Of a DNA stretch of 43,281 nt, positions 3,401 through 33,532 are shown piece by piece; position 1 is the first letter of the stretch; every line of letters begins with the position of its first letter. The DNA is from Psammoneis japonica (lineage: Eukaryota). The notes beneath the pieces were generated by a model. The model was not told the DNA's origin. It saw nothing but the letters and a program-made list of their open reading frames with translations, and did not search any database. A program made the translations under genes and the position numbers. The stretch covers positions 1-43,281 of the forward strand of contig QPGO01000343.1 in the NCBI GenBank assembly GCA_008632985.1. The letters run 5' to 3'.

Positions 3401-5380
3401 CGAAGGAAAGTGGTCTCAGGCAGGGCATTTCTCATGCTGGCGTTGTGGCAATAGATATTTCTTGGTGGACGTCATGTCGCTCGAGCTTTGTGGTGATGAT
3501 GTCGACGCTCGCATTGCGCGATGAGCTGCCGCGAAGACGTCCATTTCATTTTCTGTGATGCCGGACGAAGAAACAAAGCTCGTGGACATGAAATTGCCAT
3601 GCCTTGTTTGCGAAGATCGAAGGTTGAAGGCGGTGGATAGGGACTTCCGATCCCTTGTATCCCAGGTGGACAATCGCGAAGAGGATGTTGAAAATGATTT
3701 ATTTCGATTTCAATTTGTGAAGAATGGGAACAAATAAAGCGAACTCGATCTGCGCATTGAGTCACCACGCCTTGTGTACATTCCGAATGCAATGGCTGAC
3801 GTGCTGGGCTTCGTATCACTTGCAAGCAGTGGCAGTCTCACGGAAGAGGGCAAGCTCACAGGGTCGGAAAACTCTGCGCACGACGAGAAAGAAATTGAGG
3901 TTCACTTCAACGAGCATGGGGAGGATGTGGAAACGTCCTTCGTCCCATCCAAAGATGATGTTTCAACGACTTCTATTTCGACATCCACCGGAAGTTGCAG
4001 CGTCGTTCTGGTTGATGTTGGACACTCGTCCAATGCAGTGAGAAGAGCATCTATGCTATCAACTGCAGGTTGCACTGGGCAGGTAATGGAGGCGGTCGTC
4101 CTTCAGTTGCATGAAAGCCAAGATGTCTCGTGTGTCTTAAATCGAAGGCGGCAGACTTCTCAGCACTGATGTAGAAATGCATGGCGAAGGAATGGAGACA
4201 CACAGTGCACATGGAAGGTTTCTAGAGAGTCCGTTGCAAATTGTAGAAACCGCAAAGGTGACTTTGGTAGTCTCGACGAAGTCAAGTGCAACGAAATTTA
4301 TTGACGTTGACATCAAACTCGTCACCTTATCGCCGATATATAACATGGTGTTTTCAATGCAGAACCAGCTCTCGCGAAAGCCATTAGCCATTAGTTCCGG
4401 GTTTTCACAATCTCTCGGGTCGGAAGCCGAAGACGAGCAAGTTGTCCACATCAGCGAGCAAGAGGCATCACGAATTGAACGACTGGCGCTACAACTTGAA
4501 TCTAATGCTGGCTTCGAAGCTTCGAGTGACAGGAAGGTGTTGCACACTCAGCAGTCTGCGGTGGCGTTGTCTTCGGTGACATCGCCCGGTTCCCGAAAGA
4601 CTGCGGCTTTGCCAAGTTTGGACGTAAAATATGACCATGCCAGAAACAACGACAGCCTTCATGAATGTTCTTCAAGGTATGGATGAAGCCCTGTTCAGAA
4701 CAAAAGCTAGGAACTTTGTGGCCTGTGCTAAGGTCAGGAGCGGCGTGGTTCCTCAGGCTAGATTCACACACCAAGTTGCCTTTGAGTGTCATGTCAACAC
4801 ATCCGTTCTAGCAGGCTGTTGCTTCCACGAACATGTGGCAACAACTTTTGGTGAAACCGTGGGAAATCACAATGAACAGCGCTCGAGGCGTCAGTCGGAG
4901 ATTTAACTCTCAAAGTGTGTCCACTGCTGTGGACATCGAATCTTTCCCGTGTCACGTGTCATTCTCAGAGCAATTCCTTGATGGCACTGGCGCTGCAAAT
5001 CGCATGTGGTCAGTCTTTTCCTTGGCTTCCGCTGATGGTGCGGCAGAAAAGATTTCACCAAAAGCAAGAGAGAAGGTGTTGAGTTCGACACGCTCTCTGA
5101 CTGCCACCCTGCCACACGCAATTGAGAACCATTCCGGGGTTGATGCATTTCTGTCTTTGATGGGGGAGCGGTGCAGCGAGCGCTCTTGCCCCAGTGGAAC
5201 TGTGCAATGCTTTCGATTTGAACCTCCTGGCCGTCAAGGTTGTGGCGGACTTGGGTGCTACGGACAGGATGTTTCCCAGCTAAAGGGTCTTGTTTTGATG
5301 CTGGGTGAAAGAAGGATAGAGACAGAAAGCATCGACAAGGAGACAAAAGAGCCCAGACACGCTCACTCACTGGGACACTC
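474..5380 (+). pseudogene. VPS13: VPS13-family (chorein-like lipid transfer protein) gene relic, internal portion, with many frameshifts and stops
   Basis: Successive + strand ORF fragments carry VPS13-like motifs in plausible order: PPIIILQKSC..DVLVFDLGHFSL (1171-1437), LIIPQAAYSPEHLTLHAGDLNV (2776-3558), WQQLLVKPWEI and LPHAIENHSG (4833-5606; cf. WEPLxEPW and PYxIxNxTG). The many frame breaks exceed those seen in the intact genes of this window. Ends are approximate. Confidence 0.7.
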
Positions 5381-6669
5381 AGAAGAAACTCAATTGTCGT
5401 TCCACAAGAAGTTGGTGCAGGACATGCCCAATGCTGACTCTAGAGAGTGCTGTCACATGGTGCCATGTCGACAAATCAGTGTGAGCTCCCAAAAGACATG
5501 CAGGCTGCTTGCCACCTGCAGCATTCTTTGCTTTTCACTGGCTTTTTGCTGGGGCGATGCCCAAGCAGACTGCACCTGGGGCTCATTCTTTGTTGCCAGC
5601 CGATGACACGAGCGGCCTTTTCTTTCTTCCAGCTCGCTTCTTCCCCGTAGATTTGCCCTGACATTCTGACGACTGGTCGCGCTCGTCCACGAAAGAAAAC
5701 ATGGGTGCAGAAATCAACTTCTTTTGATGTGCTCGTGGATGGTGGTTGAGAAGTCCACCTGCTTTTTGGGTTCCGAAACGAATTCCGTGTCAACAGGAGC
5801 ATGCTCAGAGGACCACATCGTGGAATTGCAATCGTGGCGAGGAATGTCGTCTGGCAACTCCTTCCACATCATTGTTCGGGCCAGTTTGAGTTGTGAATGT
5901 TTGGGATGGTGGCGGATTTGGGCCAGCGATGACACAGGCCAGTCGTGAATTGTTCAGGAGGGCAGTGGTGGATGTGGGCTGCGGCACGCGAATGTTTGGG
6001 ATGGTGGCCAAATTTTTGGTGCCAGGTGGACACGCAGTTTTCTGCACTGGCACAAATGTTCATGCTCTGCTGTGCATGTCGCGCGCGCTCGGTCATGCAT
6101 GCCCAACAAGGAACCCGGATCTGGGTTCCTTGCCTGGTGCAAAAATGTTCAACAATTTAATTTTTTTACACTGGGCAAGAAAAAAGGTTGGATCTGGGTT
6201 CCTTTTCCTTTTCCAATGATGTCATGACACAGGAGAAGGACGGACGGCATGGCTTGGGAATCTGGAACAAAAATCGATCATCAAAATCACGCCACAACGA
6301 ACATCGCTTCTTTGCAACCACTGCACTGGCACCAACCATCAACCATCTCCCATTTCTCCCTCCATGCAAGCAACATGCCGTCAACAGAGTCGGCTGGTGA
6401 AAAGAAGAAGAAAAAGAAAAAGTCTTCAAAGTGATCCAACAAGTCTGAGAAACCTCGTCATGATGATCCCGAGCCACAGATCCAAGATCACGAAGCAAAT
6501 GTTGCGGCTCATCTTGTTCACTGTTTGGAGCACAAGCCTGCCCCGATTGCAGCAATGGCATCTGCACGTGTTGTTGGAAGAGGACGTGGTCGCATTTTGA
6601 GTCGGAGCAACGGGCACGTGGAACCAAAAAGTCCATCTCAGAAATGGCGCACGCTGTCAACCATTCACG

Positions 6670-6960
6670 GTCAGTCGAATCGTCCAATCAACACCATGGT
6701 CTGGACTCGTTGTTTGAACAATGACAGCAACACTCTTGTTGGTGCTTCATCAGATGGCACCTTGTCTGTGTTGGATTGGGAGCAGGGTGTGTCCTGCAGT
6801 GTTGTTTCCTCTGGGGGAGGTGGTGTGCAGTGCTTGGCGAGTCTCTGCAATCACGCCGAAAACAACGATGAGCACAAGACATGCTGCAATCTTGTTGCTG
6901 CAGGATGTGAAGATGGAGCAGTTCGTGTCTTTTCTGCATGGGGGAGAGCGTGGAGCATCA
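6670..6960 (+). pseudogene. WD40-repeat gene fragment, degraded
   Basis: ORF 6525-7097 contains TLVGASSDGTLSVLDW and LVAAGCEDGAVRVF, two WD40-like repeat ends. It is Tyr-free and lies in the TA-depleted zone. Confidence 0.5.
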
Positions 6961-8235
6961 TTCATGTTTGCAATGCACGACGTTTTCAACCGCTGCCGGA
7001 GGTGTTTCAGCCACTTTCGCTCCTCTTTTGCTCGACTTGCCGCCTTGCACAAGAAACCGAAATTGTCTTGTGTCATGTCCGAGTCGCTTGCATTTAAATT
7101 CGTGGCATTCTCTGTCATTCACCCCACGCTGTTGGCATCAGACCGCTCTGCATTTGACAGGCCTGACTCCAGCAGCTGCTGCAGCTCCAACCTTTGCTGC
7201 TCCGGATCGAGAACCTGAGTTGCCTGTAGAATCATCCGCAAACGAGCCGTCGTCTGAGACTCCGAAACGCAACAATGCCTCAACACCGACTGAAGCTTCG
7301 CTGCAGAGTGATGATGAACCAGCACCCAACAAGCAGGTGCGGTTTGACAGTGGTGAACGAGATGAAACAGCATTTTCGGCATCCTCCATGGCCAGTGGTG
7401 GAAGCAACAAGCGCGGACTGGTGTCACGCCGGGGCGGCAGGCATTCAGTGTGGCTTGCCGCACCGAGGAACAATCAAAAAACGACGACAATGATGGTGCA
7501 GTGACTTCTCTGACGTCGTCGAACAGCAGTGGTTTGTGGAACTCAAGCTCACCCGAGCAGGCCCAAAAGGGACCACTTTGCAAAGTCTCAAGCTGAAAAA
7601 GGAACTGAGAACAAGGTTGCAATCAAGAACGATGTCGCGACCTTGTCGGATTCATCACACTTGCAGTTCCACGAAGTGAGGTGGTGCGGCCAGGTGCAGC
7701 TGCAACGGCAGAGCAAAAGGGGAGACCAACGTCCATTGCTGTTGGTCCATCCATGATTGCATCCGCAAGTCCGCTGGCTCCACACGATGGTTCTCCTTCT
7801 GCCGCATCCAGAAAACCAAAATTAAAAAACCACCCAACCTGCCCCAAAAGAAAAAGAGCAGTGAAGGCTTTTAAGTTGTCGAAGGAATGTTGCCTTTTCT
7901 CCAAAGGCAACCGAGGCAACACCGAGAATTTCTCCTGTCAAATCACCGGCCGTTCGATTTTTGCCCTCCTTGATGATGCCAAATTGCAATCCCTCGGAGG
8001 ACTCTTTTTGTTGCCCTGTTGTTCGTCACCACGACGGTGGAGAAACTCCCGGAACGTGGGCCAGGAGCGGGAATGACGGACTTCATGCTAGACTTTGGAA
8101 AGGGACATGAATTGCTGTCGTCATTTGACACATCCAATGGTGAGTTGACTTCATTTTGTTGTCTTTGTCTGCTCGCTCGCTGTCGTCATGCTGCTTGCTG
8201 GCTGCCTCTACTTTTCGTCCTTGTTGCAGTCCTTG

Positions 8236-8602
8236 TGCAGCACGCGACTGTTGTGTGCACATTCATGATTGTGTGTTGTTTGTGTGTCAATCGTGCCACA
8301 GTCGTGGATGCGTGCAAAGGACAGAACGATCACACAGAGTTGATCGGATGTCGAGAATTGCAAACACGATCGATTGACGATGTTGACATCTTGCGTGTCA
8401 ATGGCAATCGCACCCGGACAATCTGTTGTCACGAATGCATTCTCCGAAAGGCCTTTTGTCTGTAGAAGCAGTGCAGAAGCTTTGGGCCATTGAGAACTCG
8501 TTCGGAGAAACCAAAAATCACAGAGCAAAATTCAATCTCATAATTTCCACTTTTCGCACACTGTTCTACTTTCGTTTGCACTCGTTCTTCGAGCACAGTG
8601 CA
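8236..8602 (+). repeat. 5' LTR (367 bp)
   Basis: TGCAGCACGCG...GAGCACAGTGCA; aligns without gaps to 12600-12966. Confidence 0.95.
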
Positions 8603-10729
8603 TTGTGCATGCACACCACAGAAGGTAAAAAGCATGGAAAATGAAAATTTTAACTAATGTGCCTTTGCAAATTCTTCTACAAACAGGAACGAATCGCATC
8701 AGTTCTGCTGGAATCGATTTCCGAGCGGAAGAAGCTCAAGCCGAGCAGTGCCTCAAGATGGAACGCTGTTTTTCGTCTGCCAAACAAGAGGATTCGCTCT
8801 GACACGGTCTGTTCCAAGCACCCAAGGATCAAGGGCTCTCAAGCACACCGCATTGTCAAAAAATCTACACCAAGTCATGGTTGCAGAGAGTGCAAGTTCC
8901 GAGTCGATCAGATCCGAGAAATGCGTCTACCATGCAAGGAGAGACCATTGGAGAGTTTTTTGAGATCGAATCGATGATCCTCGAGTCCAAAGAGCAAGAG
9001 GGAATCGTTGGAAAGTACCTCAAGCGTCTCGTGACTCATGTCCTCCGAGGAAATGCACTTCAGAATCAGGGAAATTATTTTCGAGACGACCTGAAGAAAC
9101 CAGAGCCGCTCAACAGCAAGAAAGCCTCTGACAGACCCAAGAGGTCAACGATGAGAGTCCATGCGACCCTCAGATGGATTCTAAGTCGAATCTAGCGGGA
9201 AACCGAGCGCTGATTTATCAGCCATCACTCGCACCGCAAGGATGGCAGCATCAGTCTACTGTCCAAAACAATCAACTGTTGCAGCTCATCCTTGATGAGC
9301 TGATTAAGTTTTGAGTCATCCAAAGGTCGTTCATGACGTCCGTGACGAAAAAACATGTCAACTCAGGCTCTGACAGCGCAGCTGGTTCCAAAATTAAAAA
9401 GGTTCCAAATTTGGTTCCAAAAATGGTCTCCTGTGTGGTGCCAGAACAATCCAAAGTGAATGCAAGGTCTCATCTTTGAAAAAAGAATGCCCACATCACG
9501 GATTGAAGCTGTTCTAAAAATGAACTAGCAAAAGAGTGCAAGGGTGACTCTGAAAGAGACCCAAAAATGCGCCGTTCAAATGGCAATCGCACGCAGTCAC
9601 GTCGCGACAACGAAAATGCCGCTCGCAAAAAAAGAGATGAACGTCATGATTGATCAGGCGGTTCAAAAAATGCTCAAAGCGAGTTCCTTGAACAAAGAAA
9701 AAGAGCACAAGGGCAAGGAATCAGATTCTGACACCCTCAGTGAAGAAAAACACCAATTTGATCGGATGATCCAGACTGAATCCGAAGAACAACTTTGGTC
9801 TGTTCACGAATTGTGTGCTTTGCTGGACATTGGGAAGCCTAGAAAAAAGGCAGAAATGATTCACACTGGTCCAGGAGTCATCATTTATGTGAATGCTTCC
9901 TTGGGAAAGGAGAGAAAAAAAAGCATCTGCGTGTTCCCATCGACAACGGAACATTGTCAACCACAATTTTGCGCAAATTCGTGCGAAAGTTGAGAACACA
10001 AGAATCCGCCACCAAAAACTTGGGAAACCAAGGGTGAGCTCTTTACGACTGACAGCAAACACCGAACTCAGTTCTCACCATGCGAAATTTAAGGCATGCT
10101 GACATTCAAACAGCACATGTTGAAAACACCAAATTTTCTTCAGGTTCAAATGACATGATCATGGGACACGACTTAATGTCCAGTCCTGCAAGTCACATTG
10201 GACTGCGCAAATGCAGAAATCTAATGGGAAGAAGCAATTGCCTTATGAAGAATGTTCACACACTCTTCGATGCCGATGTTTTCAAGCTGAAAACCGATCA
10301 CATTGAAAAATGTGACGCCGTGAACAGAGTCAGTGACGGAACCAATGGTCCTCGACTCACATTGTCACGCCATCGATCTTAATCAAGTGACAACTACGGC
10401 GATGCATCTAACCCAAATGAACACAACCAACTCAATCTTCTTCTTAAGAGGTTGAAATCGTTTTGAAAAGTTCCTCAGACGAATGCATGGGAAGCACCAG
10501 TGGATCTCATCGTGGAAAATCTGACGCGATTCCACGACGCGTGAGAACCTTCTCCTATCATAGTCTTTGGAGGCGTCCAATCAAAAGGAGTTTGACCCAT
10601 TATGAAAGATTGAAGTCTTAAGAATGAAATTGCTCTGAACAAGTCGCTCTGAGACTCATTGTCCAAAGAAAACAGGTCGAGTTCGACCGCATCCGACACT
10701 CAGAAGCTCAGCACAAGGTTCATACAGGT

Positions 10730-12290
10730 GGTGTATCCTTTACCCAATATTCAGGAAATACTGTTGAAGCAAGAACGTTTCATATATGTAATCTATTTGA
10801 TTCAAACATGGAATGCCACCATGTCAAATAAAAAAGCACACGTCGTGCTCACACGAAAATCATGCCGTGGGGAGAAAATGAGTGCTGTGGACTTCCAATG
10901 AGAATCTATAGAGCCCCAGATATTTTTATACAACACTTGAGTGAACTCATAACAGGTTTGAAGTTGTCAGAACGACTGTGTGTGATCGTTTGTGCCTGAC
11001 AAAAGTAACTTCAAAATATCACCTGTACAAGTAACAGCTTAATACGGCATTCAAACGACTAGAACAGTCGCTTAGAAGGTTAACAACAAAAGTCCTTCAC
11101 TATTTAACTTGAAATAAACTATCAAGACTTCCATGCGTAACGACATGCAATCGATTGCAAAGAAAATGGAGGCGATTCAAGCAATCGCAACACGAGAAAA
11201 ACGTAAAGAACACTACGACATCTCGTTGTCATACGTTACTATTATCGAGACATGTAGTCTCAACGATCTCCTGTACAATACTAGCCAAATTCACCTCAAT
11301 AAAGGTCAAACGGCAAAAGTACAAGTACGGAACGAAAAGTCTCCGAAAATATGGAGCGTATCAAATCAAAAACTATATTGTTATCATACACGGATTTCAA
11401 TATTATACGTTACAACGGAAAAAAGAACTTCTGTCCATAGTGAAAACACTTATAAAATTCCGAAATATACTGTTCGGCCAACATATTTATACATATACGG
11501 ATCATAAGACACAACGGACAAAGTCATACGTTGACAACTTCAGTCCCGAATTAGAATACAACGAGGGCAAGGCGAACATCGTCGCGATAGACGCGATCAG
11601 CCGACTTACTATAGAAAATTGAATCCTACGACAATGTCCTACCGTTAAAACGGGATAAAGACATTCCCTCCAAATTGTCGGACGCGACATATCATACGAA
11701 CACTTTTCGTGGAGGCGAGCGAGATCGAAAAATGCTCATGTCACAAGGATAAAATCGCCTTTTTAAAGGACGATTTAGGAAAAAACAGTGACAGATTGGC
11801 ACACATTATACGTGTCCACTTCACACTGGCAAAAGACAATCTCACAACACCCGTACGGTTGTATTGTACAATGTACGAGGCAAGACATTAAAATATACAT
11901 CATGTCGACACACGAGATGTGCCAAAGATCTAGAAAAAGAAAAGAAAAATGGACATTCATCCACTCAGTGCACGAAACCAGTGCCTTCGGAATGACAAAA
12001 TGACACCGGTGTGTCAGAAAGAAACGTCCAAATGACGATTAAAATCCAACTGATAGATGGTTGAAGTACAAAAAAAAAAAAATCCATGATGGAATTCACA
12101 ACCATCACAGGATTGATCATCAAGACGAAATGGTCACAATGTCTTTGACCATCGTTTGTTGTTGCTTGTGAAACGTGGCAGTGCAGCAGAGCAATGTGGC
12201 ACATAAAGTGAGCCCGCCAAACTGCATGAAATCCACAAGCAAGCAAGTGAATGCCATGATTAAGAGTGTACATTAAGCACTGGGCACGAT
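10730..12290 (+). pseudogene. Gypsy pol remnants (reverse transcriptase, RNase H, integrase)
   Basis: YPLPNIQEILLK (RT, about 10734); KELLSIVKTLIKFRNILFGQHIYTYTDHK and FSPELEYNEGKANIVAIDAISRL (Ty3 RNase H, about 11420-11610); NPQA...IKSVH*ALG resembling the integrase NPQANxxxERxH motif (about 12230-12290). Confidence 0.85.
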
Positions 12291-12588
12291 GCCATGTACA
12301 ATCGACATCAGGAAAAACACTTGCTCGCTCCAGGACAATCAGTCCTTGTGTTCATGTCAACAAGAACGTCAATGAGAACACTCGACGTAACACCACACAT
12401 GTGCACATCAAGTGAGAAACAAACAATGTCGCTCTCAAAAGACATTCGGAAATTGGAGCGGCCCCACATTGCCCACACAAAACAACAACAGTCATTGCTG
12501 ATGGCACAACACAGTGAAAGTGGAGACATCATGGACACTGTCGATGTCCGTCGAACAATCCACTTACAAATGACTCCAATGTGCAATT

Positions 12589-12599
12589 GGGGAGGCGAA
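12589..12599 (+). promoter_or_regulatory. Polypurine tract of the Gypsy element
   Basis: GGGGAGGCGAA immediately upstream of the 3' LTR start at 12600. Confidence 0.7.
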
Positions 12600-12966
12600 T
12601 GCAGCACGCGACTGTCATGTGCACATTTGTGATTGCACATTGTTTGCACGTCAATCGCACCACAGTCGTGGATGCGCACAAAGGACAGAACGATCACACA
12701 GAGTTGATCGGATGTCGAGAATTGCAAATACGATCGATTGACGATGTTGACATCTTACGTGTCAATGGCAATCGCATCCGGACAATCTGTTGTCACGAAT
12801 GTATTCTCTGAAAGGCCTTTTGTCTGTAGAAGCAGTGCAGAAGCTTTAGGCCATTGAGAACTCGTTCGGAGAAACCAAAAATCACAGAGCAAAATTCAAT
12901 CTTATAATTTCCACTTTTCGCACACTGTTCTACTTTCGTTTGCACTCGTTCTTCGAGCACAGTGCA
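12600..12966 (+). repeat. 3' LTR (367 bp)
   Basis: Ungapped match to 8236-8602 with 22 mismatched bases by manual alignment, all transitions. Confidence 0.95.
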
Positions 12967-13699
12967 CTTGCGTGGCTTCCATCGCCAACTGCCCATGGCC
13001 TTTTTCACCGGGTGGTGAATTGGGATCGACTGGCAACGCTCCGCGAATGTTCGCTGCACCTCACACACCGCGTGCACCCACCGTCAGCATGTCCTTTTCC
13101 GACTGTGCGAGTCTGCCAAAGAAATGGAAAATTCACCTCTCCCAAGTGAGAGGAAAAGTGACCCGCATCACAACAAGGACAACTCTCCAGCATGATTTGC
13201 ACACCACCTCTTGCAAACCGTAATAGAGTGGAGCTCTAGAACAAGGTGGTGCGGGCTTTGGCTGACACGCCGATGCAAGAATGCAGTGATGTCTTCTCGT
13301 CATCCCGTCTCTCCTTTGCCACGGGATGGCTCCGGAATGCCGGCAAGATGCCTGCCAAGGATTCGAAGAATCGTGGCAGACTGAGCCTTGATTTGGCTCA
13401 CATGGTGGAACGATGTTTGATGGAGGATGAGGACTTGAGCGTCTTGCTGCAGCTGGCGTCACACTGAAGCATGCGGGGACAACAAGGCGCAATTCTCTTT
13501 GGGGAAGGTCGGAGGTACGAAAATGCGGACGAGAACTTGGATGATTGTAGCGGCCAATCATTGGGGGTCAGAAAAGCCCTGGTTGCAAGGCAAAGTTGGA
13601 TCGAACGACAGCCTTTAGAGAGCCCGCCGATTTTCTGTGAATGACTCCACACCGCTGCCTCTTCCAATTAATTAGATCAAGCTCATCTGGTGCTTCAAA

Positions 13700-20931: not shown

Positions 20932-23900
20932 GAGGAAGATCGAAAAGCTCAACATTGCAACTTACAATCACCTTTTCAGGCATGGAGTCGTAAGCACACA
21001 TGTATTAGTTTGTTTCAATTATGCTGTTGTTGTGCTGTGCTCCTCGTTTGCCGCTTATGACTACCGGTAGGGACTCTAGGCACTACATAATCTCTAGAGG
21101 TGAAGTCCCACCGTATTTTGAGATCAGTTTCTCGCTTTTTGGATTGGTTGCCATAACTTGGCGATCTGACATACTGATTAAAAAATTATGTGCGACATCC
21201 TTGAAGGTTTCAACGATAAATGCGCAGCCACGAAAAGCAACCTGTTGCTAGTTTCAAACAAAATCGCAGCGAATCGAAAGACCACACAATTCACGATGCT
21301 TTCACAATCAATCACATCCATGAGGTACAAACAAACAAACAAACAAAAATGAGATACAGCCAATCTACCCCAGTCAAGCCACAAGGAAAAGTCGAGTGAA
21401 CCCGCACTCCAAACCTGGTCATTCCTTGTGCTTTGTGAAGCACTTGGTGGCACAGGATTGCTTGGGTGGATGTTGTTTTGTAAACACCTTTTACTCCTTA
21501 AACCAAATGCTGCATCCTCAGAAACAACATCCAATCCATGAACACTGAAGCAGTGAGCGTTGGCCTTGACCTCAGCTCCAGCCCTGACAGGAGAAGTCAG
21601 AGAGCAACGAGTCATGTCATGTTGCCCATGCTGACAATCATCCCCACTTTGCTCATTGACTGTTGGCTGAAGCCTGTCTCCACTTTGCTCCATTGCCACA
21701 GTCTGTGCCTCCTGAGCAGTCCATTCAACATGATGAGACATCTGCAATTGCATTGTCTGCTGTGACAGCAATTCCTCCTGTGACAAGAGAGATGTGGTTG
21801 TTTTGGATGAGGGCTGTGCATTCAAGAGGTGATGGCCCCTGCATTGGCGCCAACAGCACAACAATCCCTCATTGTGGATGCACAAAAAGAGGGCCAGATG
21901 CTGCACACAACAGCGGCATTTCTTTGGACATGTCCCGGCTTTTTTTCAATGAGCGCTGTGGTGGCATCATGCAAGCAAGCTTGCAGGCAAAACTTGGGCC
22001 TTGTGATGAACTGCCAAAGTCATTCTTGGCAAGGCAGCACAGCATCTTTTTCTCTTTTGCTGGTGCTGCATTTGTGCTCATTGTCAATGGAGGATGCAGC
22101 TCCTGACAATGGATGAGTCTTCTCACACACTGCACTTCTTTCACACAGCACCAACCACATTGACATTGAACGCAAGTGGCCAGCCCAATCTTGTTGGACT
22201 CCAATCCTGGTGAACACAGCCAGGCCCAACATTCACATTGTCTGCATTTTGAGGCACTCGAACAAATGGGGGCAGACAGATTTTTTTGTGACAATTGCAC
22301 CACAGTGCACAGAGCTGGTCTCCTTGTGCATTGCACACTCTCTCCACCAATGCTGTTCTTGTGACTGCTGTCCAGCTCCAAAGCTCATCTTGGTCTTGCA
22401 TTCTTGAAATGTGTGGCCACTGTCATGAACCTGAAATCTGAAACCACAATGTGTGGGTTTTTGCCACCCATGCCATGGCCTCATCAGCAAAACCTGACAA
22501 GCCTGTTGGAACCACTGCAGGACAAGCCAGTCAAATGGATCCTCTGCCAATGACAACCCCAGCAGCAAAAACTCTGTGTGACAGTTGCTGGTGCATGGTT
22601 TCAAAGATCTCAAAAAAAAACAGATGTGGTTTGAAACATTTGCTTTTTGATGCCACCACTCCAAAATTGCTCCTCAAGCAAAAGACTCGTGCACAGTGAC
22701 TGCATCCAATCTGTTGGCAAAACCCAAGCCATTCACCCAACAACAAAAAATGTTGCTCATCCCCAAAAAACATCCAAAGTCTTGAGCTTTGGGAGAGGCC
22801 CAGGCTGCTGCTGCCCTTGGAGGTTTTGTTTTGGCTGTTGCTCCCCCGCAATGGAGAAGGTGGTGAGTGTGTCCATCAGCTACAGGGATCATTGAACTTG
22901 CATGCTTGCTCTGCTCTTGTGGCAGAATGGAGAAATGCTTGGAAGCAGATGTCTTGATTTTGTTGCCCACATCAACCCAGCTGTGTCAAGAACAGAGAAG
23001 CATCAGCCCAAGCAGAGTGCCAACACATGCCACCTTCAAAGACAACGCATCAATTGTGAAGCCACTGGAGCTGCAAGTGTTGCATGGCACTGGAAGCAGC
23101 CCTTGCAACTGTGTGCAGAACACAACTGGTCAGAGAGAAAGTGCGCACCTCTTTGATTTTTTCATGTTGCTGAATGGCAGGGCAGCCACATCCCACAAAA
23201 ACTAAATTGCAGCACCCCACAACTCTGACTTTGAGTTGGCCTGGCAACCATTGCAAAAAGCAAGATGCTTGATGGCTGCTTTTGGCTTTTGTTTGGATGT
23301 GTCTGGCTGATGTGCAACAAGCAGACAAACAGGGCCTTGTCGTTGCACAGCTTTCTCTTGGAAACCATTGGTGGCATTGTCCTCTTTGTGACATTTGGGC
23401 TTGCATGTGAAGTCATTTCGAGAGTGATCTTTGTGAGGCTCAATCTCACCAAAACACCAAAATGCAATGTGCAGCTCCGCTTCTTCCTGCTCATGATCAA
23501 TCTGAGCAGTCTGACAATTTGCAGTGGCTGGTGACTCTCCTCCAGCCCAAAAAAATTGATGATGTTGTGCCTGTGTTGGTTGAAGCAGATGAGTGGGGAT
23601 CAAAAGCAATTTGTCAAATGTGGGCTGTTCACAATGTCTGGGATGCATTGCTCCTTGCCACAGACCATGACAGGCACTGGAGAAGCACAGCATTGAAGAA
23701 GGCATGACTCTCCAGGCTCAAGGTGCCTCTTCCCAAGCTTGCAACCCAACTGCGCAGGTCTCACATCTGAAGGATTGCCAAAAATGAAAGCAAGCAATGT
23801 GCTTGATGACAACAGTCAGAACCTTGGTTTTTCAAATCAAAGACTGGTGCTGGCTGCAAAGCTGCATTGAGAGCTGAGGGAGGCAAGCCTGCAGGAGTTT

Positions 23901-24911
23901 CTTTTTACCTCTGCCATCTGAAAAACAAAGTTGTTTTTGTTCAGAGTTGAAATTTGCTTGATGAGAAGTTTGTGCTCTGGTCAAATGCTCCTTCACTGTG
24001 AATGAGTGGCTTTTTAGCCACAATTGGCCAAATCAACATGGTGGGAAGAAACCAGGCTCAGGGAAATTTGTTGTCACAGTGCACGTGGGCTCTTGACAAG
24101 ATTTGTTTTGAACTCAACCACAGTGCAACAATTGTGAATGTCAGAGTGTCAACTGTTGACCAAGCTGGCAAAGTGATGGGGAACAACAGTGAATGAAAGG
24201 TGCTGGTTCATCACTGTGCACATGCACCTGAGTTGATCTCTTCAACCATTGTCACTCATTGGCTGGAGCAAGCCAGCAATTGCATTTGTTCATTGTTTGT
24301 CAACTGGCACACATTTTGTAATTTTGGTTTTCAGCAATGCCAACTGCTTTCAAGCCTGGTGACATTTGACATGTGACACATGCTCTTGTCCCATGTTCGC
24401 TGTTTTTGCCCCCTCTGTGATTCAAGCTGTCATCTCATTGTCTGCCCCATTGTCTCTTGCAGTCATCTGTTTTGAATCTTGGTGTTGTTGGCTGTGCTGG
24501 CATTGCATCATGTTTGGCTCTTTTGTGTTTCAAAGAGAGCCAGTTTTTGTGTGACAGCTTTTCATTGTGAGACATGATGCCAATCCCCAGGAAAAAAAAG
24601 CCAGCAGAGAAGTTGTCTGTTTGGTGCTTTTTTTTGTGATCACAGCCACAATGCTGCCATTCCTGCTCACCTGTGTGCAGTGTTGCAGCACTTTGTTTCT
24701 CATCCTTGGCTGTTTTAAACAATTTGTGTGGAGATTCAAGAAACAAAGCAAGGTGGCACAAAATGCCAGGTTGTTGTTTCCTGCAACAAGCTGCTTGCTC
24801 CTGTGTCACAAATCTGACCTCCTTTCTTGCCTTTGTTCTGGCAGCTTTTCTTTGTTGTTTTTGAGTGCTGAGTCCTGGATGTTGTCAGTGCCTTCCCGCA
24901 ATGTCACAATT

Positions 24912-27737
24912 GTGAAAACAACAACACAAAGCACCAATCAATGTCACACAGGCACCCATCTCAAGTCACAGAGTTGGTTGTGCAAGTGGCTGCAAACACC
25001 AAGCTGTGCCCAGCAGGTTGGCAAAGACTTGAGCTCTTCAGCTTCAGAGTGAAGTGGCCCCATGATGGCAGCACCCACCAACCCAACAAGCAACAGCAGG
25101 CTGGGAGCATGACAACTGGCGGTCCTTTTCAGACCCCAGAGGCAACACTCCAAGAACTGTGGTTGCAAGCACTGAGAAGTGCAAGACCAGCATTGTGCAT
25201 TTGTGGTGCCTTGTTGCACCCTTTCACCCAGAAACATCACACTTCAAACTTCAAAGCCCCAACTCCAGAGTGAAAGGACTGCCTGAGGATGGTGCCAACC
25301 AGGCAACTGCAAGCCAAGGACATTGGCGGTCTCTTGTGGATCCCAGGAGACACTGTCCACAACAACCATGGTTGAGCAGTGCGATGCCTGTTGTGTGTGC
25401 TTGTGCCCCCCTGCACCACCTTTTGTCCTGACAGGAGAAACAGACTTCAGCTTCCCAACTCTGCGGCAAAAGGGCAACATGGTGGTGCCAGTCAACACAA
25501 AACAGCTGCAAGCAGAGGACACTGGGCCTGGTGGTGCATGCTTCTGAACACATTTTCCACCACTTTTGCCACTGAAATTTCAAACAGCCAACATCTTTGA
25601 ATGAACCATGTGATGCTGGATCTTGAAAGCAAACAGCTTTTCTTCAATGTGAAAATGACAATGCAAAGCACCAATCAATGTCACACAGGCACCCATCTCA
25701 AGTCACAGAGTTGGTTGTGCAAGTGGCTGCAAACACCAAGCTGTGCCCAGCAGGTTGGCAAAGACTTGAGCTCTTCAGCTTCAGAATGAAGTGGCCCCAT
25801 GATGGCAGCACCCACCAACCCAACAAGCAACAGCAGGCTGGGAGCATGACAACTGGCGGTCCTTTTCAGACCCCAGAGGCAACACTCCAAGAACTGTGGT
25901 TGCAAGCACTGAGAAGTGCAAGACCAGCATTGTGCATTTGTGGTGCCTTGTTGCACCCTTTCACCCAGAAACATCACACTTCAAACTTCAAAGCCCCAAC
26001 TCCAGAGTGAAAGGACTGCCTGAGGATGGTGCCAACCAGGCAACTGCAAGCCAAGGACATTGGCGGTCTCTTGTGGATCCCAGGAGACACTGTCCACAAC
26101 AACCATGGTTGAGCAGTGCGATGCCTGTTGTGTGTGCTTGTGGCCCCCTGCACCACCTTTTGTCCTGACAGGAGAAACAGACTTCAGCTTCCCAACTCTG
26201 CAGCAAAAGGGCAACATGGTGGTGCCAGTCAACACAAAACAGCTGCAAGCAGAGGACACTGGGCCTGGTGGTGCATGCTTCTGAACACATTTTCCACCAC
26301 TTTTGCCCCTGAAATTTCAAACAGCCAACATCTTTGAATGAACCATGTGATGCTGGATCTTGAAAGCAAACAGCTTTTCTTCAATGTGAAAATGACAATG
26401 CAAAGCACCAATCAATGTCACACATGCATGCACCCATCTCAAGCCACAGAGTTGGTTGTGCAAGTGGCTGCAGACACCAAGCTGTGCCCAGCAGGTTGGC
26501 AAAGACTTGAGCTCTTCAGCTTCAGAATGAAGTGGCCCCATGATGGCAGCACCCACCAACCCAACAAGCAAGAGCAGGCTGGGTGCACAACATTTGGCGG
26601 TCCTTTTCAGACCCCAGGCAACACTCCAAGAACTGTGGTTGCAAGCACTGAGCAGTGCAAGACCAGCATTGTGCAACTGTGGTGCCTTGTTGCACCCTTT
26701 CACCCAGAAACATCACACCACAAACTTGAAAGCCCCAACTCCAGAGTGAAAGGACTGCCTGAGGATGGTGCCAACCAGGCAACTGCAAGCCAAGGACATT
26801 GGCGGTCTCTTGTGGATCCCAGGAGACGCTGTCCACAACAACCATGGCTGAGCAGTGCAATGCCTGTTGTGTGTGCTTGTGGCCCCCTGCACCACCTTTT
26901 GTCCTGACAGGAGAAACAGACTTCAGCTTCCCAACTCTGCAGCAAAAGGACAACATGGTGGTGCCAGTCAACACAAAACAGCTGCAAGCAGAGGACACTG
27001 GGCCTGGTGGTGCATGCTTCTGAACACATTTTCCACCACTTTTGCCCCTGAAATTTCAAACAGCCAACATCTTTGAATGAACCATGTGATGCTGGATCTT
27101 GAAAGCAAACAGCTTTTCTTCAATGTGAAAATGACAATGCAAAGCACCAATCAATGTCACACATGCACCCATCTCAAGCCACAGAGTTGGTTGTGCAAGT
27201 GGCTGCAGACACCAAGCTGTGCCCAGCAGGTTGGCAAAGACTTGAGCTCTTCAGCTTCAGAATGAAGTGGCCCCATGATGGCAGCACCCACCAACCCAAC
27301 AAGCAAGAGCAGGCTGGGTGCACAACATTTGGCGGTCCTTTTCAGACCCCAGGCAACACTCCAAGAACTGTGGTTGCAAGCACTGAGCAGTGCAAGACCA
27401 GCATTGTGCAACTGTGGTGCCTTGTTGCACCCTTTCACCCAGAAACATCACACCACAAACTTGAAAGCCCCAACTCCAGAGTGAAAGGACTGCCTGAGGA
27501 TGGTGCCAACCAGGCAACTGCAAGCCAAGGACATTGGCGGTCTCTTGTGGATCCCAGGAGATGCTGTCCACAACAACCATGGTTGAGCAGTGCGATGCCT
27601 GTTGTGTGTGCTTGTGGCCCCCTGCACCACCTTTTGTCCTGACAGGAGAAACAGACTTCAGCTTCCCAACTCTGCAGCAAAAGGGCAACATGGTGGTGCC
27701 AGTCAACACAAAACAGCTGCAAGCTGAGGACACTGGT
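24912..27737 (+). repeat. Tandem array of about 737-bp units (about 3.8 copies)
   Basis: GTGAAAA...CAAAGCACCAATCAATGTCACAC recurs at about 24912, 25649, 26386 and 27125. Near-identical ORFs recur at the same spacing (25323/26060/26799/27534). Confidence 0.95.
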
Positions 27738-28640
27738 GGCATCTGACAGACCCCCCAGGCGACACTCTGAGAGCTGTTGTTGGGCATTGCAAGATTGATC
27801 TTGTGGTGTTGTGGCCCCATGTTGTCACCTTGTCCTCAATGGCAGCAGACTTGAGCTGCCAAACCCAGAGTGAGAGGACTGCATGATGACACCAGCCAAC
27901 CTGACAGCTGCAAGATGAGTGCATTGGTGGTGTCCAGTGGCCCCAGGTGTGATTCAAGAACCACAAGGTCAATCTTGCAGTGTTGTGGCCCCATTTCACC
28001 TTGTCCCCAACAAAAGCAGATGTGAGTTTCTGAACTCAAGGGTGAAAGGAAGGGCCCCATGATGGTGCCAACCAGCCTCACAAAACAGCAAGCTGGGGCA
28101 CTGGTGGTCTCTGATGGACCCCAGGCAACACTTTAAGAGCTGCAACTGAGCATTGCAAGAAGGTTGACTTTTGTGGCATTGTGGCTGCCCCGCCCATGTT
28201 GTGTTGTCCCCAACAGAAGCAAACATGAGCTTCCAAGCCCCAGAGTGAAAGGACCCCATGATGGTGCCAACCAACCTGACAACAGCAAGCTGAGGACACT
28301 GGTGGTTTCTAGTGGGCCCCAGGCTGGGCAAGACTTTGAGAACTGCAGCTGAGCATTGCAAGGTTGATCTTGTTCTTGTGTTGTGGCCCCATGTCATCTT
28401 GTCCCCAACCACAGCCGTCTTTGCTTTTTTCCCAGCTCCAGAGTGCAAGGATCCCATGACAGTGCCAACCAACCTGACAACTGCAAGCAGCCAGAGGGCA
28501 TTGCCAGTGTTTGGCAGACTCCAGGAGAGATTTGAAAAATGTGGTTGGGCATTGCAAGGTTGATCTTGAGGCATTGTGGCCCCATGTCACCTTGTCTGCA
28601 ACAGCAGCAGAGTTGAATTTCCAAACTCCAGAGTGACTCA
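27738..28640 (+). repeat. Diverged monomers of about 170-200 bp, related to sub-repeats of the 737-bp unit
   Basis: CCAGAGTGAAAGGACCCCATGATGGTGCCAACC-like motif at about 27864, 28037, 28239, 28438 and 28628, with TTGCAAG.TTGATCTTG and GTGGCCCCATG motifs between them. Confidence 0.8.
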
Positions 28641-28879
28641 TTCAAAGGCCCAATTGCTGAGTTTAACAGCAGGTGAGCAAAACTTCAAAATGCAACATGC
28701 TGGGAATGCCAGAGACATGGAGTTGTTTTGCAGTGGCAAAATGGGGGCTTGTTGAGGAGAGTGGAGAAATTTTCAGAGGCACCTGATTTTTGAAACCATT
28801 TTCTCTTTGTTGGAAGGAAAGAAAACCTGCTGCAGCTGGGCCAGTCATCTTCCATTTTATCCTGATCTAGAGCTCAAGC

Positions 28880-29400
28880 AAGAATGGATCTCATGGAAGG
28901 ATTGGTTGAGGTGTGAGCCCAAAATGTGAAGTTGAGCTTTGTTTGTTGTGTGCCACACAATTTTTGGAGGCTTCTTGTCAAGCTTTCCTGCCATGAAAGT
29001 TGTTGAGTGGGTTTTTATGGCCATTCTCATTGATGACACAGTTGTTGCAATGTGGCACCAATCATTGTCCATGCTGCTGACCTTTGCACAAAGTCTCAAC
29101 ATCAAATGAGTTTTCCATCATCAAAGCCTTGGTTGCTGTCACTTGTGAGTCTGGGCCTGGAGTTGGGTGCACAGAAAATGCTTGCCCTTGCTTCTCTCCA
29201 ACAAGCAAAATTGGTGCCTTCACTTTGACAAGCATGGCATCCAAACAACCCTCTGCAATCTTCTGCAAGAGACAAAAACAAAAAAGAGCTGTGCAGACAG
29301 TGGACATGTTTGGTGTGAAATCTGTGTTGTCAGGCACATCCAAAACAGAGTGCACTGTGCAAGCATGGACCAACACAAAACACCAAATCAAATCACAGCC
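28880..29400 (-). pseudogene. Possible Copia gag-like relic
   Basis: HSVLDVPDNTDFTP...ALFCFCLLQK and IATTVSSMR...HSTTFM loosely resemble diatom Copia gag once C/H are read as former Y. The similarity is weak. Confidence 0.2.
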
Positions 29401-30125
29401 ATGTTGGCCCCCCTGACAACTTGGTGCTCAAAAAAGTGCTTGTGTGGCACATTTGTTGTCAATTGACAGCTTCAAATTGACTTTGCATGAAGTGCAAATG
29501 GACACATGCTGCAATCTGGGTTGACATGACAAGGTGAAACCAGTTGGCAAGCATTCATGATGGCAGGGGAGCAAGTGACAACATGGCCATTGTGGGGGCT
29601 GCACCTCAGACATTGTGAGCTCAACTCTAGAGTGCAAATTGACATTTGACAGAAGGGAAGGATTCAAGTTTGTGCTGCACTGTCATTGAAAAGGTGTTGG
29701 TTCAACAATTTTTTCCCATTTTTGTCAGACATGCAATGAGGTCACAGTGAGTTGCAACAGGGTTGCACCATTGTCATGCAAGAGACAAATGCAGCAGAAA
29801 TGCTGAAAAGAAGATGCAATGGGCAATCAAGCTGAAGCTCCTCTTCACACAAATAAATCAAATCTAAGCAAGGTGCTGGGCCACAAAACAAAACACATTG
29901 CAAATCCATGGCCATTGGAAAAAGTGGCTGTCAACCCAAATGTCAACTTTGTGGCTGAAAATGAGTGGGCCAGCATCTGAACATTGTTCTCAGAGCTGCA
30001 GTGACACCTGTGCAGAGCACAATCACAGGCACAGAAATCATGTTTCTTGTCAACTGATCTTCTCATTGACAGCAAAAACATGTTGCAGATGGGGCTCTGG
30101 CTCAAAACCACAGACTTGTTTGCTG

Positions 30126-33100
30126 ACTTGTGAGCAAATTTTGCACACATTGTTGTTGCATTTGCAGAAACTGGGCATGCACAATTTGACATTTTATCTT
30201 CTAAATCAACCTTTGCAACATGTGCACAATCACACAATGCGCACTTGGATTCTTCTTGATTTTTGATGGCACGTCATCCTCAAGACAGCAGCAAGAAACA
30301 GCAATTTTGTGAGCTCTCTCAACCTTGATTTGAGGGCTTGCAAGTGCAGTGGGGGCTTGCACATGCAAGGATGGCTTGGGACTTTGGGCCCAAGAATGTT
30401 GTCACAAGAGCAAATCAGCCCAAGAATGTTGCAACAAACAATGCAGGTCATGGGAAAGCAAGGAAAAGGCTGCATGGCCACATGAGACTGGCCCAAGCAG
30501 GGCTGCACAAAGAAACCTGCCAGGGTCTCACACAATGTTGACAGGGCTGTTTTGTTGATGATGTCACAACAACTGTCATTGTTTGCCACCAGACAGGGTG
30601 TTGTTGGATGGAACAACAACTTTGGCTGCAAAGAGCAAGTGTGAAACTTGAGCATGTCAGGGTGCCCAGAGAGAACAAGATGTTTGCTGGTGTGCTGAAA
30701 AGCAATGCCAAATGGAGGGTGTGCTGTCAGTTGAATGCCATGCCCTCCATCTGGTGGTTTTGTGCTCCCTTGTCTTGAACTCTGACAGAATCTCAGCATC
30801 CAGAGTTCTGCCCAAATGTGTCTGCAGCTGCACTGCTGGGTTCAGGCAAGAGCAATGAGAGACCCTCCCACTGCTGCTTCTTGAGTCAAATTGTTGACAA
30901 TCTCTCTGTTTTTCTGAGAAAGCACCAACGTTCATTGACGGCCATTGTGTTGCTCAGAGGGGAGTCAGCTTCTGTGACAAAGAAGGGGCAAGCAGCACTT
31001 GAAGACACTGGGGACTGGCTCAAAACTTTCAGCAGCAATGTGGCTCTTGATGAGGAAAAAGCAGTTGTCATCATGGGTGACCTCCTGCAATGAGCAATGA
31101 GCAGCACAAGAAGTGTGCAGTGCCAGGAGAGTGGAAGTGCCTGTGATGACAACAATGTGAAAAGGCATTGTTGAGCCAAACATCACTCTTTGGAAATGAC
31201 AATTTTGGCAATGTCAAAATTGTTTTCAGAGCTGCAGCTGCAGTGACCACCTCAATTGATTTTTGAAAAAATTTGACACCTGTGGAGGGCACAACATTGC
31301 AGGTGTGGAATTTTGTTTCTTGTCAACTGATCTTCTCATTGAGAGCACAAACATGTTGCAGACAGCATTTTGCTTGATTGATTGTCTTCTCACCCAAGCA
31401 ACTCAGAAAAGTGTGTGTGGCTCTTCTCCTCACACACAATGACATTGGGTTGATTTTTCAGGAGTCACATGACAACCCATCATTTTCACTGAGTTGTTTG
31501 TCTGTCCCGCTCTTCTTCTGGCATGTCAAAAATGCATTTGATTGGAAAAAATGTGTGCAGAGTGTGCACGCAGTTCTTCTTCAACACTCCTGTTGATGGC
31601 ATGCTGCAGGTTTCTGAGCACATTGTCCACTGCCACATTTGTTCACACCACCATCATTTCAAAACATGCAGATGAATGAACCTTCAAAGAGCCAAGGTCT
31701 TTGAATGAACTTTGTGATGCCAGATCTTGAAAACACAAATTGGCTTTTCTTCATTTTCTTTTGCCAACTTGTGAGCAAAGTTTGCACACATTTTTGTTGC
31801 TTGTCACATTTGCATGCAAAATTTGACAGTTGTCTTCTGAATCAACCTTTGCAACATGTGCACAATCACACAATGCACTTGGATCATTTTTGATTTTTGT
31901 GGCACATCATTCCCAAGACAGCTGCAAGAAAGATTGTTTTTGTGAGCTGGCTCAACCTGGATTTGAGTGCTTGCAATTGCAAGGGGGGCTTGCACAAGCA
32001 AGGACAGCATGGAATTTTTGGCCCAAGAATGTCATCATCAGAGCAAATCAGCCCAAGAATGTTGCCACAAGAGCAGGTCATGGGAGAGCAAGGAAAAAGT
32101 GGCATGGCCACATGAGACTGGCCCAAGCAGGCTGCAGCAAAAAAACCCTGCAAAGGTCTCACACAAGGATGCAGGGCTGTTGTCAATGTCATGACAGCTG
32201 TGATCATTTGCTGCCACCATGCAGAGCATTGCTGAACAAAACAAAAGCTTTGACTGCAAAGAGCAAATGCAGAACCTGAGCATGATGGGGCCATGCAAAA
32301 GATGTTCGCTGGTGCTAAAAAGAAGGACCCAACAAAGGGTGCACTGTCAGTTGAATGTCATGCATCCATCTGGTGGTTTTGTGCTCCCTCTTTTTGAACT
32401 CTGTGCCAAGATCTCAGCATCCAGAGTCCTGCTCAAAAATGTCTGGAAATGTGCTGCTGGGTTCAGTCAAGAATGATGAGAGAACCTCTCAGAGAAACTG
32501 CCAGCATTGATGGCCACTGTGTTGCTCAGAGGGGAGCCAGTCTCTGTGACAGAGAAGAGACAAGCAGCAGTCCAAAACACTGGTTTGCTGCTGCAAAGCT
32601 TGCAGCAGCAATGTGACATGATTTTTGAAAAGGAAGAAGCAGTTGTCATGGTGAGTGGCCTCTTGCAAGCATCACAAGTGAGCAGTGCCAAGAAAGCAGA
32701 AGTGCCTGGGATGACACCAGGACAAATGGAGTGGGTGCTGTGATGGCCATGTGAAAAAGCAGGATTGAGTCAAGTGCCACTCTTTGATCAAAAAGCTCAG
32801 AAGGGGTGTGTGCAAGCTTTTCCCTTGTTTTCAAAAGTTTGGCATCTTCTCAGGTGTTGTTTGGTGTTGGAGTTTGCAGCATTGTCAGCTGGAAGGTCGC
32901 GGGGGCTTGGGTGGTCAACCATGTGAGGAGAAATGCACACCTTGAAATCAAAGTGCATGGGCACATCAAAACGCCATTTCAAAAATTGCACAAAGCCAGG
33001 AGGGAGCAGTGGCTGCAGACTGTTCACCAGAAGCAGAGGGACACCTTGGCTGTTGACTGGAGGACTGCTGTGTTCAGCCATGTGAGGAGTCACTGGGCCA

Positions 33101-33510: not shown

Positions 33511-33532
33511 GAGAGAGAGAGAGAGAGAGAGA
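33511..33532 (+). repeat. (GA)11 microsatellite
   Basis: Perfect GA run. Confidence 0.95.

Follow-up and report, generated by a model that had tools for sequence, protein, structure and literature searches.

The closest described counterpart of the locus analysed here is found in the chlorarachniophyte Bigelowiella natans. According to a recent preprint, Illumina sequencing of mutation-accumulation lines of this alga assigned 231 of the 302 nuclear mutations to a pair of integrated viral regions, where 230 of the 231 were A-to-G or T-to-C changes, all of them on TpA dinucleotides and giving TpG or CpA, at a rate about 1000 times the background and in some lines only (10.64898/2026.01.13.699255). 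As reported there, the B. natans genome holds 124 clusters of 1-kb windows poor in TpA and rich in CpA plus TpG, and Mettrop et al. propose deamination of adenine in DNA, with an ADAT2-like candidate enzyme, as a defence against foreign DNA (10.64898/2026.01.13.699255). Here we describe a stretch of 43,281 nucleotides of contig QPGO01000343.1 from Psammoneis japonica (hereinafter, the window) in which a long terminal repeat (LTR) retrotransposon and the DNA around it have probably undergone a genuine hypermutation of TpA (below, dinucleotides are written TA, CA, TG and CG). The likeness to the hypermutation of nucleocytoplasmic large DNA virus (NCLDV) and virophage insertions extends to the TpA target, the two products, TpG and CpA, the regional restriction and the existence of spared parts, as well as to runs of 1-kb windows in which TpA is low and CpA plus TpG is high, and perhaps to a GC-ward bias that opposes the usual AT bias.

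The element (Table 1) has terminal direct repeats with TG..CA ends, a 4-bp duplication on either side and a matching empty site. In contigs of two public sequencing runs from one sample, X1 and X3, position 8231 is joined directly to 12967, skipping 4735 bases, with 4 letters that fit both sides; these contigs represent an allele, or a close relative, that lacks the element, and the LTR pair is a genuine single insertion. An ungapped comparison of the two LTRs, a pair that the repeat search also recovers, yields 22 mismatches in 367 positions (94.0% identity), all of them transitions, and reproduces site by site the classes listed in a preliminary description of this DNA: seven TG/CA dinucleotide swaps (starting at 8252, 8264, 8272, 8274, 8283, 8294 and 8313), five sites with TA in the 3' LTR and CA or TG in the 5' LTR (8365, 8393, 8438, 8484 and 8539), two sites with CG versus TG (8285 and 8445), and a single mismatch in another context (CC/TC at 8413). 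Pyrimidine-purine dinucleotides contain 21 of the 22 differences, the remaining one being of a background type, and 19 of the 22 are compatible with conversion of TA to TG or CA. The differences are clustered, with 15 of the 22 packed in 62 bp (the swaps occupy 8252-8314), and nine pairs of mismatches are adjacent; when 22 mismatches were placed at random 200,000 times, nine was never reached (maximum 7), and at least seven double hits occurred in 1 of 200,000 trials when the mismatches were confined to pyrimidine-purine positions. The first 85 bp of both LTRs are devoid of TA. The 5' LTR carries TG at six of the seven swap sites, a split that is not significant (two-sided p 0.125, computed by hand); it prompted us to consider strand-coordinated, kataegis-like editing, which was discarded when a runs test on the order of TG and CA gave no support for it. 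As a separate observation, the interval 8001-8400, which spans the border between the flank and the LTR, has the strongest local excess of TG over CA in the window (54 vs 29).

Taken alone, the LTR pair requires 22 changes both from a CG ancestor (all C-to-T) and from a TA ancestor (all A-to-G or T-to-C). The distribution of the changes is more telling. Under the TA-ancestor model, 15 sites are changed in both, one or neither LTR in 7, 5 and 3 cases, against 6.0, 7.0 and 2.0 expected (chi2 1.2); under the CG-ancestor model, the corresponding numbers for 30 sites are 7, 2 and 21, against 2.1, 11.7 and 16.1 expected (chi2 20.6). The 21 CGs that are intact in both LTRs include some that adjoin swapped sites, at 8292 and 8311 (CGTG versus CGCA at 8292-8295 and 8311-8314), and the observed/expected ratio (o/e) of CG in the LTRs is 1.1-1.2. 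A family contig from a further public run, X2, differs from the 3' LTR by one base in each of the seven swap dinucleotides, and in all seven cases this base turns the dinucleotide into TA, which bears out the earlier suggestion that a palindromic dinucleotide was resolved on opposite strands. This contig also reads TA at seven additional sites within the first 50 bp at which the two LTRs share TG or CA, so concordant and discordant sites in this part are equally numerous (seven each), as independent 50:50 resolution predicts. These comparisons use 18 of the 21 differences of the X2 contig, namely those away from its ends; the other three probably lie near the ends. The X2 contigs amount to 0.44 million letters and probably hold only the most repeated words, and being TA-rich appears to be the condition of abundant, young members of the family. 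All 15 LTR differences that the X2 copy polarises are A/T-to-G/C. Within the first 85 bp, conversion affected 14 of 14 TA copies at the seven swap sites, compared with 5 of 16 downstream (Fisher p 9e-5).

Sites beyond the LTR pair point the same way. We considered a site polarised when the letter of the window was opposed by 98-100% of the depth of the other family contigs or by every covering flank contig. The family-contig comparison comprises 40 listed differences, none of them in the 5' LTR, and 496 further ones. Among the rows listed, nine transitions are polarised: TA to TG at 8801 and 13074 (where all covering contigs have TA), TA to CA at 9223 and 8129, CG to CA at 9595, CG to TG at 8116, TG to CG at 11475, TT to CT at 9382, and CC to TC at 8966. 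None of the nine creates TA; six are A/T-to-G/C and three are G/C-to-A/T, a small sample, and A/T-to-G/C changes outside TpA, polarised or inferred, are found at 11475, 9382 and 12649. In the left flank, at 8074-8231, the empty-site contigs have TA (six sites) or CG (two sites) where the window reads TG or CA, and none of the 11 flank rows listed pairs TA or CG in the window with TG or CA in a contig. Among the rows listed and the conserved codons discussed below, there are seven losses of TA (four from contigs and three in Tyr codons) and no gains. The direction of change is the loss of TA. The preference of the preliminary description for TA over CG as the ancestral dinucleotide thus has the support of the X2 copy, the model fit, the intact CGs beside swaps, and the polarisation of flanks and codons. 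Two further polarisers were set aside: the RNase H remnant of the element, because its relatives are only 41-50% identical, so that differences cannot be read as mutations, and singletons in a 737-bp tandem repeat, because informative columns are too few. There is also a second, more diverged insertion-free sequence with indels, matching 8056-8139 and 13002-13199 at depth 50 in X1 and 157 in X3, which may be a paralogue or a third haplotype and which served as an outgroup at three sites.

The loss of TA is regional. In the genes of the window with Pfam domains (those for a metallophosphatase, a SET protein, a TPR protein, an NmrA-like protein and a peptidase M50B), the o/e of TA is about 0.6, that of CG about 1.0, and those of CA and TG 1.05-1.2. 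By comparison, TA is nearly absent and CG is kept between ~4,900 and 13,500, that is, over the element and both flanks, with partial depletion extending back to ~3200; the Rho of TpA in the element and its flanks is 0.03-0.39 outside one TA-rich patch. A second domain, of 12.3 kb, has sharp edges and fills the whole gap between the metallophosphatase and SET genes; over 22000-33800, the o/e is 0.02 for TA, 0.07 for CG, 1.84 for CA and 1.95 for TG. A six-frame Pfam search of this domain at E up to 0.1 returned two matches below the cut-off, the stronger being PF23383 (E 2.7e-06, 26.8 bits versus 27). Altogether, 15 of the 43 1-kb windows pass both B. natans thresholds, and 13 of these are consecutive (21-33 kb). 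Counted together, pyrimidine-purine dinucleotides number about 85-105 per 400 bp in the sampled purged and normal stretches alike; therefore, purged DNA resembles ordinary DNA in which TA (in the second domain, also CG) has been rewritten to TG or CA. The GC content of 52-53% in the flanks purged of TA only, against 45-50% in adjacent DNA, matches about 40 TA-to-TG/CA changes per kb. Since the empty-site contigs keep TA and CG, the purge is specific to the element-bearing sequence and does not affect the empty allele; a uniform, genome-wide depletion of TA was dropped as an explanation, being contradicted by the domain structure. The very high site-specific rate that had been proposed from the LTRs is indeed dinucleotide-specific, with the refinement that it is also regional, covering the element, ~3-5 kb of the left flank and ~0.5 kb of the right flank, with a 1.1-kb patch spared. 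As the high rate is regional, the LTR pair does record a mutational spectrum, as had been claimed, albeit that of local hypermutation and not that of the genome background.

Repeats provide additional comparisons. Swaps are present in four further repeat comparisons, and in three of these four CA/TG is the most frequent kind of adjacent double difference. Swaps represent 3 of 6 and 2 of 2 doubles in two pairs of tandem copies, and none occur in another tandem pair (the third and fourth copies) or in a 15-kb pair. In the pair at 30.0 and 31.6 kb, they account for 9 of 35 adjacent doubles, and only six pyrimidine-purine differences are of the single-step kind, which suggests that TA and CG are short-lived states in the 12.3-kb domain. 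As to the repeats themselves, this last pair (30002-31362 versus 31640-32800) is an old duplicate whose members are 76.5% identical and differ by 143 transitions and 118 transversions. The tandem array at 24911-27736 consists of ~3.8 copies of the 737-bp unit that are 96-99% identical; copies 1 and 2 are 98.9% identical and differ by two TG/CA swaps 6 bp apart, and one column of the four copies reads CA/CA/CG/TG. The whole domain holds just 19 TA dinucleotides.

The purge also reaches a host gene. The open reading frame 4812-5606 encodes the C-terminal end of a VPS13-like protein of ~2,150 residues (113 relatives, 44 of them at E below 1e-30; the family assignment is from Pfam searches with two of the relatives). 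In this gene, a conserved Tyr is replaced by Cys (TGT) at 3238, where 26 of 26 homologues have Tyr, by His (CAC) at 5115 (Tyr in 29 of 30), and by Cys (TGC) at 5208 (Tyr in 26 of 30); an invariant Tyr is retained at 5259. Of the conserved-Tyr columns, 4 of 8 now read His or Cys where the exons are purged or partly purged, compared with 1 of 15 in unpurged DNA (14 columns of the SET gene and one of an upstream exon; Fisher p 0.033). The VPS13-like allele that carries these changes may be impaired. The 3' part of the gene spans 1715-5382 and so runs into the purged zone.

The internal region of the element is degenerate, with 62 stop codons in frame 1. A Pfam search of its three forward frames produced one weak match, PF17917 (E 2.3e-4, 21.7 bits versus a cut-off of 24.8), corresponding to an RNase H remnant of ~74 residues to which all 16 retrieved related proteins align in tblastn (41-50% identity, E down to 9e-16). 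This remnant is the sole recognisable coding trace, and reverse transcriptase and integrase were found neither by Pfam in the forward frames nor by tblastn with related proteins; by these similarities, we read the element as a degenerate, non-autonomous member of the Ty3/gypsy-like LTR retrotransposons. From general knowledge of LTR elements, we take the purine tract directly before the 3' LTR to be the polypurine tract; inspection by eye, with no comparison to transfer RNAs, revealed no TGG-type primer-binding site after 8602. In the public-run contigs, word depth rises from 60-190 in the flanks to 7,000-40,000 over the element, which is matched by 5014 X1 contigs; the family is therefore very abundant in the public sample, and the internal region is the common form of a non-autonomous family. 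The window contains no further copy of the LTR or of the element, and a degenerate pattern of the LTR had no matches in metagenome scans. The spared patch within the internal region has 8-17 TA per 150 bp, compared with 0-4 in the rest of the element and 4-6 in a transition zone (10336-10785), and X2 contigs match the patch with 0-7 differing letters over 233-303 bp. Around the patch, the o/e of CG is 1.55 in 11001-12000, and TG is very low (3-7 per 150 bp across 11086-11835).

Table 1. Features of the window that bear on the TA purge, with positions and the basis of each assignment
Feature	Position	Strand	Basis
VPS13-like gene, C-terminal coding part	4812..5382	+	relatives, conserved-codon alignment
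Left flank purged of TA	4900..8235	.	TA o/e 0.07, CG 0.71, CA and TG ~1.5 over 5000-8235
UTP4-like WD40 (U3 small nucleolar ribonucleoprotein) protein, N-terminal fragment of ~190 amino acids	6372..6932	+	relatives
Target-site duplication, left copy CTTG	8232..8235	.	read from sequence; empty-site joint
5' LTR, 367 bp, TG..CA ends	8236..8602	+	repeat search, ungapped comparison
Degenerate internal region, TA-poor outside one patch	8603..12599	+	stops, Pfam, TA counts
TA-rich patch spared from conversion	10786..11900	+	TA counts per 150 bp
Ty3/gypsy-type RNase H remnant	11398..11619	+	PF17917 and tblastn
Presumed polypurine tract directly before 3' LTR	12589..12599	+	read from sequence
3' LTR, 367 bp	12600..12966	+	repeat search, ungapped comparison
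Target-site duplication, right copy CTTG	12967..12970	.	read from sequence; empty-site joint
Right flank, TA-poor	12967..13500	.	TA positions; polarised site 13074
TA/CG-purged repeat-rich intergenic domain, 12.3 kb	21500..33750	.	dinucleotide o/e, six-frame Pfam

The differences from B. natans are no less instructive than the likeness. The host here is diatom-like, that is, a stramenopile, not a chlorarachniophyte: for the SET-domain protein (34194-35963), 492 relatives were found, with a best identity of 52%, and those that bear a name all come from diatoms, and the relatives of a UTP4-like fragment give the same picture. In B. natans, giant-virus and virophage insertions are targeted and the Rho of the NCLDV region is 0.45, whereas here an LTR retrotransposon and a repeat-rich intergenic domain are affected and the depletion is near saturation (o/e 0.02-0.07); the spread over 3-5 kb into host genes and the additional loss of CpG in one domain also set the present locus apart. 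Furthermore, the changes in B. natans were measured de novo, whereas those described here are known from sequence comparison. The words diatom, LTR, retrotransposon, CpG and flanking are absent from the preprint (10.64898/2026.01.13.699255). Our literature searches on diatoms found no report of TpA hypermutation, and in a search on TpA hypermutation by adenosine deaminase the B. natans preprint was the only relevant item. Searches on A-to-G hypermutability of TpA and on ADAR editing of LTR elements likewise brought up nothing pertinent.

Other systems share some of these features. Fungal repeat-induced point mutation (RIP) is likewise a hypermutation by transitions of repeated or foreign DNA, in which copies are mutated independently, single-copy DNA is affected by leakage and reading frames are destroyed. 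By contrast, RIP changes C to T, mainly CpA to TpA, and so enriches TA, whereas here TA is removed and GC rises. With a TpA/ApT ratio of 0.12-0.30, the LTRs lack the rise that accompanies RIP, as does the internal region with 0.44; the process is not RIP because TA falls rather than rises. The decay of CpG through 5-methylcytosine in vertebrate and plant transposons similarly turns a palindromic dinucleotide into TG or CA on either strand, with swaps and inflated divergence, but the unstable dinucleotide at the element is TA, and loss of CpG is seen only in the 12.3-kb domain. The clustered transitions of deaminase type in retroelement copies are also reminiscent of the G-to-A changes made by APOBEC3 and of A-to-G hyperediting by ADAR, which prefers U before the edited A. 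However, as these enzymes are described, they act on replication intermediates or RNA and so cannot alter flanking host DNA, and ADARs are metazoan.

In the scenario that we consider best, a non-autonomous, high-copy Ty3/gypsy-like LTR retrotransposon inserted into one allele of a diatom-like genome, as is shown by the 4-bp duplication and by the survival of an empty allele. After the insertion, a regionally targeted process would have turned TpA into TpG or CpA, that is, A to G on either strand, both in the element and over several kb of the host DNA next to it. Each TA of each LTR would have been resolved independently and in either direction, so that conversion in both LTRs appears as a TG/CA swap or leaves no trace and conversion in one LTR appears as TA versus TG or CA. 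The same process, combined with loss of CpG, would have stripped the 12.3-kb repeat-rich intergenic domain. By analogy with B. natans, this may be a defence-like hypermutation of foreign or repeated DNA; its chemistry would then presumably be deamination of adenine in DNA, and its borders could be set by chromatin state or by another targeting signal. Editing of both A and C in DNA by an ADAT2 is cited in the preprint (10.64898/2026.01.13.699255), and diatoms encode RID-related DNMT4 enzymes of unknown function (PMC9998398). A more far-reaching possibility, which we put forward tentatively and regard as somewhat doubtful, is that diatoms possess a DNA-editing defence that marks new or repeated DNA, deaminates adenine at TpA to saturation, removes CpG in long-silenced domains (through a dual A/C ADAT2-like deaminase or coupled methylation), spreads over kilobases into host genes and disables the linked allele.

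Several observations weigh against the hypermutation scenario. No contig in the best-matching sample carries the letters of the window at the polarised sites, as would be the case if the window came from another strain or haplotype or contained errors, and only a fraction of 0.53 of the sampled words of the window is present in run X1; given that contigs drop rare variants and that a filter removes records, the missing letters in X1-X3 amount to a caveat only. The comparison rests on contigs of public runs, and these contigs are apparently split between the two LTRs, which biases the family frequencies. As for the five sites where the preliminary description contrasted TA in the 3' LTR with CA or TG in the 5' LTR, two are not assessable, and at 8539/12903 the X2 copy has CA, like the 5' LTR, which runs counter to a TA ancestor there, so that the TA of the 3' LTR may be derived. 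Beyond the first 85 bp, five sites with TA in X2 are concordant in the two LTRs and none is discordant, which is at odds with independent conversion after insertion; these sites were probably converted in the parent copy before insertion, and the X2 copy is therefore not the exact parent. The loss of CpG in the 12.3-kb domain is foreign to the B. natans signature, and the scenario does not account for the sparing of the 1.1-kb TA-rich patch inside the element.

Some of these points are also what one would expect under the main rival explanation, an unlikely one in our judgement, namely, an assembly artefact in which modified bases at TpA (and 5-methylcytosine at CpG in the 12.3-kb domain) were misread in a strand-specific manner as TG or CA by the long-read basecaller or consensus. 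Methylation-induced nanopore errors are strand-specific transitions. An artefact would fit the incomplete presence of the window's words in X1 and the lack, in the best-matching sample, of any contig with the window letter at 8116, 8129, 8158-8193, 13074, 8801, 8966, 9382 and 11475; it would also fit the 11 of 11 flank differences among the rows listed that fall at pyrimidine-purine sites and go in one direction, and a near-total loss of TA (o/e 0.02), whatever the age of the sequence, within sharp borders that resemble a modification domain. Yet the succession of TG and CA forms no strand blocks: the 12.3-kb domain has a switch fraction of 0.48 (z -2.05), the left flank gives a z of -0.06, and genic DNA is alike. 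The four copies of the 737-bp repeat are concordant at almost all such sites, with two swaps in 737 bp between the first two copies, which rules out random resolution of errors, whereas the LTRs are discordant at seven sites in identical contexts, which rules out errors determined by context. Moreover, X1 contigs have CA at thousands-fold depth where the X2 copy has TA (for instance, 98% C at 12658), so both states exist among the family contigs of public runs. Finally, in B. natans this signature has been recorded de novo from Illumina data (10.64898/2026.01.13.699255).

The remaining alternatives fare worse. It appears distinctly improbable that the swap sites were CpG at insertion and decayed by deamination of 5-methylcytosine in both LTRs, the five TA sites arising by C-to-T at CpA through methylation or a RIP-like process. 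This explanation needs no more changes than the TA model, and CpG decay does exist in this genome, as seen from the polarised sites 8116 and 9595, the CA/CA/CG/TG column of the tandem repeat and the CG o/e of 0.07 in the 12.3-kb domain; the diatom DNMT4 enzymes mentioned above are also in its favour. It must contend, however, with 21 CGs intact in both LTRs against seven changed in both and two in one, with the intact CGs that abut swaps, and with the near absence of TA around the element, a dinucleotide that a C-to-T process would enrich; nor does any polarised change make TA, and the replacement of conserved Tyr by His or Cys runs in the opposite direction. We consider it very improbable that the first ~80 bp of one LTR were overwritten by ectopic gene conversion from another family member. 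The cluster of 15 differences within 62 bp would then be a single event that mirrors an old split between sublineages, and the family does have very many copies, with both states common at several of these sites (for example, T in 57% at 12616, 31% at 12647 and 67% at 12649 among the contigs there); but the TA-free flanks, the Tyr-to-His/Cys replacements and the seven other differences of the same kind are left unexplained, and a divergent donor could itself arise only through a process that converts TA to TG or CA. Least credible of all is editing by an APOBEC- or ADAR-like enzyme during reverse transcription, with the LTRs already different at integration. By the scheme of reverse transcription, editing of plus-strand strong-stop DNA and of the minus strand predicts TG in the 5' LTR and CA in the 3' LTR, which is what six of the seven swaps display; the 6:1 split lacks significance, though, the single differences downstream are mixed in strand, and host DNA outside the element, which was never reverse-transcribed, has undergone the same changes.

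These findings have a bearing on dating. The preliminary description held that dating by LTR divergence would be inflated here, and this holds up: only one of the 22 differences is of a background type by dinucleotide context, perhaps 1-3 of them are background changes, and the insertion-free allele persists. The element looks much older than it is, and in genomes of this kind LTR-divergence dating can be inflated several-fold. If our interpretation is correct, TpA-specific hypermutation of foreign DNA has here a second example, phylogenetically remote from the first, which is so far known from a single preprint on one chlorarachniophyte; new in comparison with B. natans would be the retrotransposon target, the near-complete erasure of TA, the spread into flanking host genes with a change of conserved tyrosines to His or Cys, and the domain that loses CpG. 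The locus would also offer a natural comparison of the states before and after, in the form of an LTR pair that started out identical and of an empty allele with its TAs preserved. A simple genome-wide screen for low TpA, high CpA plus TpG and an unchanged order of purines and pyrimidines would make a deaminase-based defence in algae testable. Should the tentative notion of a diatom DNA-editing defence prove true, TpA editing, taken together with Bigelowiella, would be an ancient form of genome immunity across the stramenopile-alveolate-rhizarian (SAR) group, as well as a major cause, hitherto unrecognised, of divergence between alleles and of false ages of algal transposons.

Several features of the other genes in the window deserve mention. 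The remaining ~600 residues of the UTP4-like protein were not found within the window, and the N-terminal fragment may be a piece of a pseudogene or a gene disrupted near the insertion. A pattern derived from the SET protein matched 46 metagenome stretches, none of which was confirmed. The NmrA-like gene (38875-39887) is divided over two overlapping reading frames, 38875-39540 and 39162-39887, which could reflect a frameshift or a short intron. The single N of the window, at 3117, lies in the VPS13-like coding region; a short direct repeat is present there in two imperfect copies ~29 bp apart, and the N falls within the first.

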